From Bacteroidia bacterium (GTDB taxonomy: Bacteria; Bacteroidota; Bacteroidia; NS11-12g; UBA955), in assembly GCA_044341025.1 (NCBI GenBank), contig JBIISM010000003.1:28308-92307 (forward strand): DNA of 64,000 nt, written 5' to 3'. Of the stretch, positions 20,938 to 45,628 are shown piece after piece (the first letter of the stretch is position 1; each line of letters begins with the position of its first letter). The position numbers were made by a program, and so were the translations under genes. The notes beneath the pieces were generated by a model. It searched no databases. It was not told the DNA's origin and was given only the letters and a program-made list of their open reading frames with translations.

Positions 20938-21402
20938 TAGGGGTTAGGGGATAGGGTTTAGTATTGGTGATGCTTCGTTATTTCCATTATTAAATAAATT
21001 GTGGTTTATTTTAGGGATTAGGGTCTAGGGTTTAGGGTTTAGTATGTGTGCGTATTGCTTCGTTTTTCCGCTGTTTACATTATTCAGCACCTACAGAGCT
21101 AACTATAAAATATCTATGAGAGTGAAAAGTTATGAAGCTTCCGAAATTCTCACTATACCCTAAACCCTACTTTGCCCACTGGAGTGAAACGTAAGTGGGT
21201 CCCCTAGCCCCTGATAGGAAACGCAATGATTTCAATTAATGAGATAACTAAGCGTATTCGACCCCAAGCCCCTGTTAGGAAACGCAATGATTTGAATTAA
21301 TGAGATAACTAAGCGTATTCGACCACTAAACCCTATCCCCTAGATTTATCCCGTAGCGTGACGGAACGAAGTGCAGTCTCTGCTAAAGGGACCCTTGCCC
21401 CT
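20938..21402. repeat. Heptamer-repeat lattice (TAGGGTT/TAGGGGA, then inverted CCCCTAG/ACCCTAA) interrupted by REP-like hairpin modules
   Basis: G-rich heptamers at 20938-20961 and 21011-21042; C-rich heptamers from 21157 to 21402 flank 30-55 bp modules that recur at 24267-24576. Confidence 0.8.
21201..21322. repeat. 61-bp tandem duplication (2 copies, 58/61 identical)
   Basis: cccc(t/a)agcccctg(a/t)taggaaacgcaatgattt(c/g)aattaatgagataactaagcgtattcga at 21201 and 21262. Confidence 0.92.
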
Positions 21403-40961: not shown

Positions 40962-41261
40962 ATGAAACCAATATATGATTACTACGGACTAATCATCAGT
41001 TTTAAAAAAGAAGACAGCTTACCTATTCTGCTTATGGCTAATAGAGGCAACTTCTGTAGCACTTTCAGCATTGGGTTTTCAGATGGTTTAATGGATGCGC
41101 CAAAACACATAAAAGGCGAAAATGAACTTGATACCGCAGACTTCAAGACGTTTACAACATTAATCGAAAACAACAGCAGCGAAATCATCAAACTTTGGCT
41201 CGACATCTTCCTTTACGGCAAAGACCATGAAGTGGAGCTGATTAAGACAAAATTGGTTTAA
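40962..41261 (+). CDS. Hypothetical protein resembling DUF4160 family, lacking the His motif
   Basis: MKPIYDYYGLII N-terminus and IIKLWLDIF C-terminus recall DUF4160; TAAATTTG -7 box at 40935. Confidence 0.55.
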   Translation: MKPIYDYYGLIISFKKEDSLPILLMANRGNFCSTFSIGFSDGLMDAPKHIKGENELDTADFKTFTTLIENNSSEIIKLWLDIFLYGKDHEVELIKTKLV

Positions 41262-41331
41262 TATTTGAATTAAATAGCCTAAACTTGAATTTAAATTGAG
41301 CTTAAAAATACCTCTAAAATAAAATCTAACA

Positions 41332-41541
41332 ATGAAAGTGATTATTGATATCCCAGATAACGAAGCAGGCTTCGGATTGAAAGTATTAAAAAGCCTTTCT
41401 TTTGTTAAAAAAGCCAAACCAATGAGCCTTTCAGGGGAAGAACTATTAAAGGACCTAAAAGATGCAGCGAAAGATGTGCGCTTGCATAAACAAGGCAAGT
41501 TAAAATTAAAAACCGCGCAAGAATTACTGAATGAGTTATAG
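41332..41541 (+). CDS. Putative type II antitoxin
   Basis: 69 aa ending GKLKLKTAQELLNEL; stop overlaps the ATG of a RelE-like reading frame. Confidence 0.7.
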   Translation: MKVIIDIPDNEAGFGLKVLKSLSFVKKAKPMSLSGEELLKDLKDAAKDVRLHKQGKLKLKTAQELLNEL

Positions 41542-41641
41542 GATAATTCCAACTCATAGGTTTGAGAAAGAAATCAAAAGGTTAAACATGTTGTTGGAGT
41601 GCTCGCAAGTTCTAGAGAACACTACACTTCGTTTCGCTTAG
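41531..41641 (+). pseudogene. Truncated RelE/ParE-like toxin
   Basis: MSYRIIPTHRFEKEIKRL is a typical RelE N-terminus; frame runs into the repeat element at 41587 and stops at codon 37. Confidence 0.7.
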
Positions 41642-42185
41642 CTCTTACTCCTCCTGTTTACGATTTCTTTGAAACGAAAAGAAACTCCCCACTACGACGA
41701 TGCATGTTGTTGGTATTACTCCCGTTGGTCATGAAACCGCTTCGCTCAGGTCCTGCCAACAACGCCATATACAAAACGACCTGGCACATCTTTACGATTT
41801 CTTTGAAACTCTTTAATTTTCATGATTAATTTGTATCAAGTAATAACCGTTTAATTCTCTACTACACGAAACGGCCCCAAGCAGAAACGGCAGCCCAGAT
41901 GCGTTTATGGGATAAAGTTTAAAATATGAATGCATGGCGAGCGGCAGTAAGCCCATGTATAATTTAAAAAGAATTAATATGCTAAGACGCAACTGGCTAT
42001 AATGGATGCTTGGTCAAGGCAGACTTTTTATTATCGTAAACGTATACCAGATTATCGCACTGAAGGCGTTGTTGGCGGGGACTCCAACAACATGTATATC
42101 GAAGCGGTTTCACAAACTTTTCTCAAGAACTTAACGGAACGAAGTGGAGTGTTCTATTGACTGAAAGGAATACTCCAACAACATG
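41587..42185. mobile_element. Non-autonomous REP/REPIN- or MITE-like element with nested inverted arms
   Basis: Ends catgttgttggagt / actccaacaacatg; inner inverted pairs agaacact.cacttcgtt.cg, tgaaaccgcttcg and gccaacaacgcc around a ~300-bp core with no intact ORF. Confidence 0.65.
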
Positions 42186-42200
42186 GTACAAATTTTATCC

Positions 42201-42232
42201 AAAAAAAAGCTTCCCTTTCGAGAAGCTTTTTT
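42201..42232 (-). terminator. Intrinsic terminator of the acyl-CoA dehydrogenase transcript
   Basis: Minus strand aagcttctc-GAAA-gggaagc followed by T8. Confidence 0.85.
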
Positions 42233-42254
42233 GAAAATCTATAAAAGTAGTTAA

Positions 42255-42474
42255 CTACTTCAAAATATCCCTCGCAATATGGAGGAAAATTTCAAGAGCT
42301 ACTTAAAATAGCCAAAGCCCTATTTTAAGATATCCCTCGCAATATGGTGGAAAATTTCAAGAGCTACTTAAAATAGCCAAAGCCCTATTTTAAGATATCC
42401 CTCGCAATATGGTGGAAAATTTCAAGCGCTACTTAAAATAGCCAAAGCCCTATTTTAAGATATCCCTCGCAATA
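42255..42474. repeat. 65-bp tandem array (3 units plus the gene's own end) duplicating the 3' end of the acyl-CoA dehydrogenase
   Basis: Units start at 42255, 42320, 42385 and 42450; each holds the gene's last 25 nt plus a 40-bp near-identical spacer. Confidence 0.95.
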
Positions 42475-43589
42475 ACAACACGTTGTATTTCACTGGTGCC
42501 TTCGTAGATTTGGGTAATCTTCGCATCACGCATTAAACGCTCTACGTGGTACTCTTTTACGTAGCCATATCCACCGTGAACTTGAACCGCTTCGATGGTT
42601 GTTTTCATTGCCACTTCACTGGCAAACAACTTAGCCATGCTACCAGCTCTGTTGTAATCCATGTGTTGGTCTTTTAACCAAGCAGCTTTTAAACACAACA
42701 TTCTTGCAGCTTCAATTTCTGTAGCCATGTCAGCCAATTTAAATTGAATGGCTTGGTGGTTCATAATTTCTGTACCAAATGCTTTTCTTTCTTTAGAATA
42801 TTTAATAGCCAATTCGTAGGCACCGCTTGCAATGCCTAAAGCTTGAGCAGCAATACCAATACGTCCACCAGTTAAGGTTTTCATGGCAAATTTAAATCCA
42901 AATCCATCTTCACCTATTCTGTTTGCTTTCGGAACTTTTACATCCGTAAACATTAATGAATGTGTATCACTTCCGCGAATACCCATTTTATCTTCTTTTT
43001 TTCCAACTACAAAACCTTCCAGGCCACCCTCAACAATAAATGCATTGATGCCTTTATGACCAGCCTCAACATTCGTTTGTGCAATTACCAAGTAAATAGA
43101 AGCAGTTTTACCATTGGTAATCCAATTCTTAGTACCGTTTAATAAGTAATAATCGCCCATGTCGATAGCAGTGGTTCTTTGTGAAGTAGCATCGCTACCA
43201 GCTTCTGGCTCACTTAAACAAAATGCACCATGCACTTCGCCTTTCGCCAATGGAACCAAATACTTCATTTTTTGTTCTTCCGAACCAAAGGTTTCTAAGC
43301 CCCAGCAAACCAATGAATTGTTTACAGACACTACCACAGAGGCAGACGCATCTATCTTGCTCAGCTCTTCCATAGCCAATACATAACTTACCGTATCCAT
43401 GCCGCTTCCACCGTATTTAGGATCTACCATCATACCCAAAAAGCCCAATTCGCCTAACTTTTTAATTTGTTCAGCTGGAAATTCTTGGTTGTTGTCGCGC
43501 TCAATTACACCCGGCAATAACTCGGTTTGTGCAAAGTCCCTAGCAGCTTGTTGTACCGCTAATTGTTCTTCTGTTAGTTCAAAATTCAT
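42450..43589 (-). CDS. Short-chain (butyryl-CoA-type) acyl-CoA dehydrogenase
   Basis: FCLSEPEAGSDA, GTKNWITN, GRIGIAAQALG, QVHGGYGY, IYEGTSEIQR. Confidence 0.94.
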   Translation of the reverse strand: MNFELTEEQLAVQQAARDFAQTELLPGVIERDNNQEFPAEQIKKLGELGFLGMMVDPKYGGSGMDTVSYVLAMEELSKIDASASVVVSVNNSLVCWGLETFGSEEQKMKYLVPLAKGEVHGAFCLSEPEAGSDATSQRTTAIDMGDYYLLNGTKNWITNGKTASIYLVIAQTNVEAGHKGINAFIVEGGLEGFVVGKKEDKMGIRGSDTHSLMFTDVKVPKANRIGEDGFGFKFAMKTLTGGRIGIAAQALGIASGAYELAIKYSKERKAFGTEIMNHQAIQFKLADMATEIEAARMLCLKAAWLKDQHMDYNRAGSMAKLFASEVAMKTTIEAVQVHGGYGYVKEYHVERLMRDAKITQIYEGTSEIQRVVIARDILK

Positions 43590-43597
43590 GACGGGCG

Positions 43598-43708
43598 CAA
43601 AAATACATTGTTTCTAATTACTATAAAAATTGTAAGCGCCTGATTTTAATAAAAAATACATATTTACATCAGTTTGACTTAAGGTTTCCACCCAAACGTG
43701 TATTTTTG
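43598..43708. promoter_or_regulatory. Divergent -7 boxes (TATTTTTG) for acyl-CoA dehydrogenase (43598-43605, -) and lplA (43701-43708, +)
   Basis: Exact TAnnTTTG matches 8 and 5 nt from the respective ATGs. Confidence 0.6.
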
Positions 43709-44707: not shown

Positions 44708-45628
44708 CTATTTTTTTCTTAACCTACCCTGCGAACGCGGATGGTACATCGCTATGGTTTCTTTTAAGAAACTCTTATCCAAATGCGTGTATATTTCAGT
44801 GGTGGTAATGCTCTCGTGACCCAACATCTGCTGCACCGCACGCAAGTCGGCTCCACCTTCTACCAAACAAGTGGCAAACGAATGTCTGAATGTATGCGGA
44901 CTGATGCTTTTGCGTATGCCAGCCCTTTGCGCCAATACCTTGGTCAATTTAAAAATAGACACCCTGCTAAGGGAAGATCCCAAATGGTTTAAAAACAATG
45001 TGTCGCTGTTTTTCTTTTGCATTTTCATGTGCACACGTACTTCTTCTAAATAAATACGTATAGCCTTCAAGGCGGCATCACCTATAGGCACCAATCGTTC
45101 TTTATTGCCCTTGCCTGTCACTTTAATAAATTCGTCGTTGAAATAAATTTCAGAAATATTTAACCCCACCAATTCACTTACCCTTAACCCGCAACTAAAC
45201 AAGGTTTCTAGTATGGCTTTGTCTCTATGCCCCATGGGTTTGCTCATATCAATGCAAGAAATCATTTCATTAATTTCTTCTAAGCTCAATACTTCGGGTA
45301 ATTTGCGGGCCAATTTTGGCAGTTCTAAAAATTGGGTTGGGTCTTTTTGTAAAAGCTCCTCCATCAATAAATATTTGTAGAATGCGCGCAAACCGCTGAT
45401 CATGCGTGCTTGACTGATGGCCGCCACACCAGCATGGCTTAGAGAACTGACAAAATTCAATAAATGCTCGTATTCCACCTGCAAAGGTGTTATACCCAAG
45501 TTTTCGTTTTTTAAGAAATTTTCGAAATATTTTACATCGTGCAAATACGCAGAAATGCTGTTCTTAGAAAGTGATTTTTCCAACAACAAATACTGCTTAA
45601 AGCCTTTACCGGCACTATGCCAGTCCAT
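44708..45628 (-). CDS. xerD: Site-specific tyrosine recombinase XerD
   Basis: GLRVSEL, GKGNKERLVP, SPHTFRHSFAT, LGHESITTTEIYTH. Confidence 0.9.
   Translation of the reverse strand: MDWHSAGKGFKQYLLLEKSLSKNSISAYLHDVKYFENFLKNENLGITPLQVEYEHLLNFVSSLSHAGVAAISQARMISGLRAFYKYLLMEELLQKDPTQFLELPKLARKLPEVLSLEEINEMISCIDMSKPMGHRDKAILETLFSCGLRVSELVGLNISEIYFNDEFIKVTGKGNKERLVPIGDAALKAIRIYLEEVRVHMKMQKKNSDTLFLNHLGSSLSRVSIFKLTKVLAQRAGIRKSISPHTFRHSFATCLVEGGADLRAVQQMLGHESITTTEIYTHLDKSFLKETIAMYHPRSQGRLRKK

Follow-up and report, generated by a model that had tools for sequence, protein, structure and literature searches.

A single-locus 65-bp palindromic tandem array at the 3′ end of a Bacteroidia acyl-CoA dehydrogenase gene, probably built from direct and inverted copies of the gene's own end

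Introduction

The described systems closest to the locus considered here, a 65-bp tandem array at the 3′ end of an acyl-CoA dehydrogenase gene in a 64,000-nucleotide stretch of Bacteroidia bacterium DNA (hereafter the window; C21:28308-92307 of its own genome, 2.57 Mb in 22 contigs), are tandem inversion duplications, the Escherichia coli element e14, mycobacterial interspersed repetitive units (MIRUs) and repetitive extragenic palindromic sequences with their bacterial interspersed mosaic elements (REP/BIME). In the available extract of PMC4689423, a fold-back model acting at short interrupted inverted repeats yields direct-inverted-direct copies, and the tandem inversion duplications of Kugelberg et al. 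(2010) are covered beside ODIRA (origin-dependent inverted-repeat amplification), fork stalling and template switching (FoSTeS) and microhomology-mediated break-induced replication (MMBIR). As far as the extract of PMC13626634 goes, icd and icdC flank e14, the duplicate 3′ end carries conservative or synonymous differences, the displaced native end (icdC) lies on the far side, and a working chimeric gene is re-formed when the two ends recombine. MIRUs, in the portion of PMC12548453 at hand, are a dispersed family of 40-100-bp head-to-tail units beside genes, variable in number among strains, which insert at start codons, carry a coupled small open reading frame (ORF) and have stop and start codons that mesh with the neighbouring ORF. 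REP/BIME elements, according to the accessible part of PMC12306157, are hairpin units in 3′ untranslated regions (UTRs), often tandem and near the stop codon, with reported mRNA stabilization.

A first-pass annotation of the window had read the array as a cargo-free, attP-like 65-bp unit that entered the gene through a shared core and displaced the original gene end, an idea made reasonable by the resemblance to e14 and icdC. The present analysis adds that the 40-bp spacer between the gene-end copies is derived from the gene end and is not foreign. We give a probability of roughly 55% to the reading that the array is a palindromic minisatellite confined to one locus, which a fold-back-type error made out of the gene's own end and unequal crossover amplified, and whose spare tails are kept coding-competent by exchange with working ends.

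Anatomy of the array

The gene is a 379-aa ORF (42450..43589, minus strand, from the ORF list and translation) with the C-terminus ...RVVIARDILK* and the Pfam domains Acyl-CoA_dh_N, _M and _1. No NCBIfam equivalog exceeded its cut-off against this ORF, hence the generic acyl-CoA dehydrogenase label; an orthologue is present in all 41 related genomes. Tandem Repeats Finder returned one array (42265..42474; period 65, 3.2 copies, 98% matches, score 406), whose head-to-tail period lies within the 10-100 bp of minisatellites or variable-number tandem repeats (VNTRs). Its parts, read from the sequence unless otherwise stated, are as follows.

42450..42474, minus strand: direct copy 1, in use as the working gene end: T ATT GCG AGG GAT ATC TTA AAA TAG (TATTGCGAGGGATATCTTAAAATAG)
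42410..42449, minus strand: spacer 1, the 8-nt loop GGCTTTGG (42449..42442) followed by the inverted gene end (42441..42410), with the private variant GCGC
42385..42409, minus strand: direct copy 2, the same as copy 1, untranslated
42345..42384, minus strand: spacer 2, loop plus inverted gene-end arm; reverse complement TGGTGGAAAATTTCAAGAGCTACTTAAAATAG + CCAAAGCC (by alignment)
42320..42344, minus strand: direct copy 3, the same as copy 1
42280..42319, minus strand: spacer 3, with the variant CCTCC; counterpart of the distal spacer of metagenome contig L041 (2/40 differences)
42255..42279, minus strand: direct copy 4, the native gene end, T ATT GCG AGG GAT ATT TTG AAG TAG (TATTGCGAGGGATATTTTGAAGTAG), from an 18-nt identity (GATATTTTGAAGTAGTTA) with the nearest array-less relative

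All four copies translate to IARDILK*. Copy 4 differs from copies 1-3 by ATC>ATT, TTA>TTG and AAA>AAG, all three at the third codon position and synonymous, and the three spacers differ from each other at one or two positions. On the copies at 42450, 42385, 42320 and 42255 the first-pass annotation was correct in every detail, the three wobble-only substitutions of the distal copy included.

The spacer as an inverted gene end

A blastn-short match between the spacer and the minus strand of another species' gene end prompted comparison with the orthologues, for which loci carry L numbers and genomes G numbers (L006 = G014, L007 = G017, L008 = G019, L009 = G020, L018 = G004 and L052 = G047). Past the 8-nt loop the spacer reads CTATTTTAAG TAG CTCTTGAAATTTTCCACCA; reverse-complemented, it becomes ATGGTGGAAAATTTCAAGAGCTA-CTTAAAATAG, colinear with the final 33 nt of the G004 gene (AGAGTGGTAATTTCAAGAGATATCTTAAAATAA). 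Local alignment of this 33-nt arm with the last 33 nt of the orthologues scored 36 with G004 (best alignment AATTTCAAGAG.TA-CTTAAAATA) and 21 with the window's own gene; the value of 36, the best over 28 gene ends including the gene's own, was reached by none of 2000 shuffles, whose maximum was 30. With the perfect 10-bp stem excluded, the outer 23 nt scored 23 with the S-type ends (ATT TCA AGA) of G004, G012 and G022 and 6 with the gene's own ATT GCG AGG, and the score of 23 was matched by 9 of 5000 shuffles.

These alignments identify the spacer as a loop followed by the gene's last ~31 nt, inverted and slightly decayed. The 65-bp unit accordingly consists of direct copy, loop and inverted copy, and the array alternates direct, inverted, direct, inverted. 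An inverted copy between two direct ones (direct 25, loop, inverted ~31, direct 25 nt) is the arrangement of a tandem inversion duplication, and the earlier view of the unit as attP-like is not supported.

All outgroups in the tree are S-type, and the S-to-A change lies on the stem of the window's clade; the arm, which matches the S-type, therefore retains an older or foreign allele state. The sequence GGCTTTGGCTAT, that is, the loop plus CTAT, also occurs 11-22 nt past the stop codon of the orthologue in the distant congener G047, a weak hint that loop and CTAT are older 3′-UTR sequence (12 of 1000 shuffled spacers do as well over the 35 downstream regions).

Each unit also contains a plus-strand ORF of 10 codons (42345-42377, 42410-42442 and 42280-42312) reading ATG GTG (or GAG) GAA AAT TTC AAG AGC TAC TTA AAA TAG, with CGC in place of AGC in 42410-42442. 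This short frame arises from the inversion of the gene end and closes with the same Leu-Lys-stop; there is no evidence of its use.

Native gene end and array-less relatives

The 3′ ends of 30 loci and of 8 further loci of the genus were inspected, two of them cut by contig ends. In the nucleotide tree the window groups with L041 and G014 (support 92/94), inside a clade with G017, G019 and G020 (100/99). G014 is the nearest array-less genome, its gene being 96.1% identical in nucleotides. Three array-less relatives end as follows.

G014: ATT GCA CGT GAT ATT TTG AAG TAG TTA...
G017: ...GCG AGG GAT ATC TTG AAG TAG
G019: ...GCG AGA GAT ATC TTG AAA TAG

Each has a single gene end, and the stretch from stop codon to terminator is unlike in all three. 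The distal copy of the window together with the 3 nt past its stop equals the working end of G014 over 18 nt (GATATTTTGAAGTAGTTA), and the flank CTACTTTTATAGATTTT, the stretch before the terminator, recurs in G017 and L041, as CTACTCAATATAGATTTT. By this identity and the recurrent flank, the distal copy and its flank are the native, 'empty' configuration. The proposal that the distal copy is the original gene end is thereby upheld: G014 ends ATT TTG AAG TAG TTA, as the distal copy does, and array-less relatives ending ATC TTA AAA TAG, which would have marked that copy as simply decayed, were not seen, G014, G017 and G019 all having TTG. A displaced native end with synonymous differences, facing an empty site in relatives, is what an e14-type insertion leaves, and it is found here. 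The spacer is absent from all 35 relatives that have downstream sequence, an inverted or direct copy of the own gene end from all 26 with at least 150 nt downstream, and the array from all 8 further genus loci.

Two features complete the native 3′ flank.

42245..42260, no strand assigned: 16-nt perfect palindrome AAGTAGTTAACTACTT across the distal stop codon, its right half running into CTACTTTTATAGATTTT (sequence; a hairpin in the RNA fold)
42201..42232, minus strand: intrinsic terminator, comprising an A-run, GCTTCTC GAAA GGGAAGC and T8 (RNA fold: 13-bp hairpin plus U8)

The terminator sequence is common to the window, G014, G017, G019 and L041. It was not listed by a simple terminator scan and was recovered by the RNA fold; the distance from the distal TAG to its A-run is 22 nt, and both the spacing and the GAAA-loop hairpin agree with the first description.

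In G020 (C38) the contig ends within the gene end (...GATATCTT), which leaves the locus unassembled, and the end motif occurs nowhere else in that genome; the break is compatible with an unassembled repeat, yet counts as no evidence for one. G014 and G019 have TAGTTATTGGTTAA-like short repeats in the first ~45 nt past the stop, with stop codons in several frames; small arrays of the complementary motif TAACCAATAAC occur elsewhere in the genome to which the window belongs, at C10:30481, C16:15648 and C18:284888.

An imported gene end

The S-type affinity of the arm also bears on a somewhat unlikely but credible alternative, in which the gene end of an S-type congener (ATT TCA AGA GAT ATC TTA AAA TAG) already had the form of a long palindromic terminator, and a piece of it, the foreign end with its inverted arm, recombined into this lineage before the native end. 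One edge would have joined by homology within the shared TATTGCGAGGGATAT region and the other illegitimately, with amplification by unequal crossover afterwards. The inverted arm and the TTA AAA of the units do match the S-type ends of G004 and G045 (AGAGTGGTAATTTCAAGAGATATCTTAAAATAA) better than those of the own clade (TTG); the native end is intact distally, the array is absent in G014, G017 and G019, repeated losses would not be needed, and the synonymous-only differences would simply be differences between alleles. No donor is known, however: a palindromic gene end occurs in 0 of 26 relatives and 0 of 8 further genus loci and gave no match in the species genomes described below. Nor does the last 180 nt of the gene contain a foreign tract in comparison with the rows of its own clade, the left half of each copy is of recipient type, and the same inverted duplication would still have to occur, in the donor.

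Evidence for the array beyond the window assembly

The independent, conspecific metagenome contig L041 (identity 97.1% over 3064 nt) has an array in the corresponding position. Its order is ATT GCA AGA GAT ATC TTG AAA TAG, spacer, ATT GCA AGA GAT ATC TTA AAA TAG, spacer, ATT GCG AGG GAT ATC TTA AAA TAA, that is, two units plus a terminal copy, diverged, where the window has three units; a ~134-nt block follows the terminal copy, and then the terminator as in the window. Of the L041 spacers, the proximal one has 7 differences in 40 sites from all the others, and the distal one has 2 in 40 from window spacer 3. The two versus three units and the diverged spacers imply that the array predates the strain split, that unit number varies and that units turn over. 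Unit number thus varies between strains as at a VNTR, on two alleles only (3 vs 2), and as the first-pass annotation expected.

The locus was also sought in sequencing runs; at least half of the sampled words are present in 14 lake-water DNA runs, which, like the Bacteroidetes-type FtsL beside the locus, indicates a freshwater Bacteroidota. Logan contigs from three DNA runs of different studies cover the terminator, distal copy and spacer 3 (42066..42313 in X1 and X2, 42066..42294 in X8), the passage from copy 3 into spacer 2 (42315/42318..42378) and that from the end of spacer 1 into the gene (42445..42850), with 0-1 differences from the window over the covered junctions. An 883-nt contig from an RNA run (X15), possibly DNA carry-over, is of the L041-like allele; it runs from the gene through the array and 134 other letters to the terminator. 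Contig depth on the shared piece 42284..42344 was 32.9, 24.7 and 43, against 15, 9.6 and 13.1 on the flank, a depth that is no copy number.

Misassembly of short reads into a 65-bp repeat is extremely improbable on this evidence. The array is not spanned in full by any contig of the three DNA runs, and its three units are therefore counted from the one assembly, from which the GCGC variant also comes; that variant lies in a piece (42384..42444) left uncovered in X1, X2 and X8, a gap that proves nothing. Yet a diverged array in an independent contig cannot come from collapse or duplication of identical reads, and the distal-copy/spacer-3 and copy-3/spacer-2 junctions are present in contigs of three studies. 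The assembly artefact that the first-pass annotation had named as a possible refutation is not borne out.

Synonymous variation among the copies

Over the seven direct copies (four in the window, three in L041), 6 of 24 coding positions vary. All six are third positions, and every copy encodes IARDILK*; by our arithmetic, the chance that six variable sites all fall among the eight third positions is C(8,6)/C(24,6) = 28/134596 = 2e-4. Variation in the spacers is about as dense (8 of 40 sites) but shows no such pattern. Since only wobble sites vary in the copies and the spacers are patternless, the copies appear to have evolved as working gene ends, either because they were assembled from different alleles or because contraction and expansion change which copy ends the ORF. 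The sites variable among copies vary too among the working ends of array-less relatives, and a crossover anywhere inside the 25-nt copies restores an intact ORF and stop codon. The first-pass annotation was right that slippage alone cannot explain wobble-only changes.

Three other candidates were dropped. Translation of the downstream copies has against it, for copy 2, an in-frame TAA 15 codons upstream and the lack of a start codon in the interval; readthrough or frameshift extension meets stop codons in all frames, and 65 is not a multiple of three; and the near-identity of the spacers speaks against clustered regularly interspaced short palindromic repeats (CRISPR).

RNA structure

In the RNA each unit folds as CGAGGG-AUAU-CUUAAAAUAG [GGCUUUGG] CUAUUUUAAG-UAG-CUCUUG, with the stop codon in the stem, and the final 10 nt of direct copy 1 form the 5′ arm of hairpin 1. 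The unit hairpins stand upstream of the real terminator in the mRNA, and the fold of 42190..42500 (311 nt, terminator included) has -85.3 kcal/mol and a z-score of -3.0. A search of 41000..43700 against Rfam 15 gave no match at gathering score; three sub-threshold matches (E 0.15-0.51) are chance.

These hairpins might stabilize the message or slow termination, by analogy with REPs. In its strong form, as a selected 3′-UTR device in which stop-holding hairpins shield the mRNA against 3′ exonucleases or delay termination, with expression of the dehydrogenase set by the number of units, the idea is compatible with the origin that we prefer for the array, and we regard it as unlikely. The fold does contain repeated stable hairpins. 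The 10-bp stem is perfect in four of five units, the fifth having G-U for A-U, and the A-to-G changes in the gene (AGA>AGG, GCA>GCG) retain G-U pairing with the arm. Perfect stop-anchored stems of at least 9 bp are rare, occurring in 5 of 1806 long ORFs as against 0 at within-gene control positions, and both ribosome stalling and mRNA stabilization have been reported for REPs that lie within 15 nt of a stop (PMC12306157, in the part available). On the other hand, there are no compensatory double changes, only two alleles are at hand, close relatives do without the array, no Rfam family matches, and X15, as possible DNA carry-over, cannot show transcription. The array is explained without need for a dedicated function.

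Search for mobile-element features

The 65-bp unit has four matches in its own genome, all within the array, and a sensitive blastn-short search of that genome found elsewhere only chance matches of at most 16 nt. The 10-8-10 palindrome occurs three times, always in the array, and three further matches need three mismatches each. Two unit patterns gave no match in one genome for each of 185,579 species, and the unit none in 2.9 million viral contigs, 50,697 phage records or 72,556 plasmid records. The 33 genomes of the genus returned chance-level matches of 22-26 nt only (E 5.6e-4 to 5.5e-3), one of them the G017 gene end. A pattern match on C19 of G047 is chance, lying inside a 498-aa ORF; of two metagenome matches, L040 is chance, in an unrelated coding region, and the other is L041, the same locus. 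The genome-wide and phage searches, of the kind that the first-pass annotation had proposed for an attP, gave no match of the unit beyond the array, and the single locus sets the array apart from dispersed families of REP/BIME or MIRU type.

A tyrosine recombinase is encoded 2.2 kb away, at 44708..45628. It is XerD (TIGR02225, 344.9 bits against a cut-off of 329.6) and the sole recombinase within ±6 kb. In the array-less L006, L008 and L009 it occupies the same position and is 100% identical over the 126 residues covered, so a dedicated integrase as in e14 is not found. Foreign cargo between the gene-end copies is likewise missing, the loop and inverted gene end being all that lies there, and no element or attP elsewhere was found in the genomes, phages, plasmids and viral contigs searched.

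That the array is a minimal gene-end-replacing unit, or the scar of a larger element integrated site-specifically at the core TATTGCGAGGGATAT with a replacement 3′ end, is therefore very unlikely in our judgement. Tyrosine-recombinase core sites have an arm-spacer-arm layout, which the 10-8-10 stem-loop resembles; the layout of e14 in icd, with the replacement end proximal, the native end displaced distally and synonymous differences between them, is matched as well, and a tyrosine recombinase gene does lie nearby. But that recombinase is XerD, in the same place where the array is absent; the loop and inverted gene end explain 41 of the 50 non-core bases, leaving no cargo; second copies are missing from the own genome and every collection searched; and a 65-bp circle is too small for known synapses. 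Without a copy elsewhere, made of the inverted gene end and beside a housekeeping XerD, nothing marks the unit as mobile, and the attP-like reading, which had neither a dedicated recombinase nor a foreign spacer to draw on, is not supported. It is highly improbable, too, that the unit is a true minimal gene-end-replacing module, a palindromic 10-8-10 recombination site from another species' copy of this gene end that a Xer-type host recombinase can insert at the shared 15-nt core and multiply there, with ORF, stop codon and hairpin kept; such a cargo-free 'selfish gene tail' would, if true, be a new kind of mobile DNA.

Proposed origin of the array

In the reading that we prefer, a palindromic minisatellite made from the gene's own end, the anatomy suggests that a fold-back or template-switch replication error first wrote the gene's final ~31 nt in reverse directly behind the stop codon, beyond the 8-nt loop, and then switched back to the forward template at a point ~25 nt ahead of the stop. 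The product would be direct, inverted and direct gene ends, a tandem inversion duplication at the 65-bp scale, with its turn at ATAG / GGCTTTGG / CTAT, right by the stop codon. The palindrome would have been made from a gene end unlike today's GCG AGG, the arm retaining the older or foreign ATT TCA AGA. Unequal crossover or slippage between the 25-nt direct copies would then expand, contract and turn over the units, a step to which the polymorphism partly attests: growth from one unit to several fits ordinary unequal crossover or slippage, as do the three nearly identical units in the window and the diverged proximal one in L041. Finally, the role of working end may have fallen to different copies in different lineages, or copies may have been exchanged with working alleles, so that they would come to differ only at synonymous third positions.

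The palindrome may have arisen in the lineage before the S-to-A change and have been lost in G014, G017 and G019, or it may have been imported from an S-type congener. The window's own genome is prone to arrays of this kind: it has 20 tandem-repeat loci of period at least 30, two of which begin at a stop codon, and only the present one takes in 22 nt of a long ORF.

Several points weigh against this account. The origin event is read from anatomy only, and fold-back junction repeats cannot be shown, at the second junction or elsewhere; the best junction hint, GGCTTTGGCTAT, is weak, as the shuffles that equal it indicate. The inverted arm fits the other allele type better than the own gene, the opposite of what a recent local error predicts, and on the tree an array older than the S-to-A change would need separate losses in G014, G017 and G019. 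There are two array alleles only, so that turnover and selection on the spare copies are judged from seven copies. Single-unit DNA hairpins are no stabler than shuffles (z -0.7 to -1.7), and 65 bp is far below the kilobases over which known tandem inversion duplications extend.

Neighbouring genes and repeats

A Bacteroidetes-type FtsL gene neighbours the array locus. The ~600 bp downstream of the terminator (41570-42190), without recognizable genes, are a mosaic of dispersed repeats with 25 other blastn matches in the own genome (on C1, C2, C5, C10, C16, C17, C18 and C21), and a 31-nt core at 42065-42095 recurs exactly on C17. Directly past the stop codon in L041 (3065-3200) and in G017 stands a ~120-134-nt block (...CCCGTTGC...GCAACGGG...), which has five relatives in the own genome (C9, C10 twice, C15 and C18), resembles the 55-57-nt tandem units at the contig ends C9:1-241, C11:1-169 and C17:33067-33374, and looks like a family, similar to REPs or miniature inverted-repeat transposable elements (MITEs), that lands at gene ends.

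Among the tandem repeats of the own genome, the one at C9:1-241 has a 57-nt unit in 4.2 copies with 100% identity; it begins exactly at the stop codon of a 787-aa ORF and is cut by the contig end. Its unit boundary (GAAGGAAGTGATCCC) resembles the end of that 787-aa gene (GAGGAAGATTGATCCC), and it may be a second, out-of-frame gene end taken into a repeat. At C9:51778-51974 a 168-aa ORF has a TAGGG/TTTAGGG-rich array, with a 40-nt period and 5.1 copies, that starts 2 nt into its stop codon. The window contains one more of the genome's 20 minisatellite-like loci, a 61-bp tandem repeat at 21201-21324 (C21:49508-49631; 2.0 copies, 95% matches).

Discussion

If the preferred reading is right, the locus is a natural miniature of the direct-inverted-direct rearrangement known from laboratory amplification, found in a wild freshwater bacterium and reiterated into a minisatellite. 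The gene would have gained a stop-embedding hairpin and spare coding-competent tails from its own sequence, and untranslated copies could bear a signature of purifying selection because recombination swaps them with the working end. For annotation the case is a warning that synonymous differences in a duplicated gene end do not by themselves establish an integrative element. Its practical bearing is modest, possibly a length-variable 3′ UTR of one metabolic gene.

Among the systems with which we began, REP/BIME elements share with the array hairpin units in the 3′ UTR, often in tandem and near the stop codon. They form families of hundreds of dispersed copies, whereas the window palindrome belongs to a single locus and holds the stop codon and coding bases in its stem. 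MIRUs are alike in unit length, head-to-tail order beside genes, strain-variable number and the meshing of stop or start codons with a neighbouring ORF; the window unit differs in being confined to one locus, in standing at a stop codon and in being made from its own gene end. With e14 in icd the array has in common the duplicate 3′ end with synonymous differences and the displaced native end on the far side. In contrast to that element, which measures ~15 kb and brings its own recombination system, the array has neither cargo nor dedicated integrase nor second site, and what lies between its ends is the inverted gene end.

The closest likeness in structure is to tandem inversion duplications. 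Known cases extend over kilobases to hundreds of kilobases and were selected for gene dosage, while the window array has a 65-bp unit, includes no whole gene, comes from a wild population and is reiterated head to tail, and the junction repeats required of such duplications are not demonstrable in it. It shares with them the direct-inverted-direct order with short junctions, a first junction that is a hairpin turn at the very end of the copied segment, and later remodelling or amplification between the direct copies.

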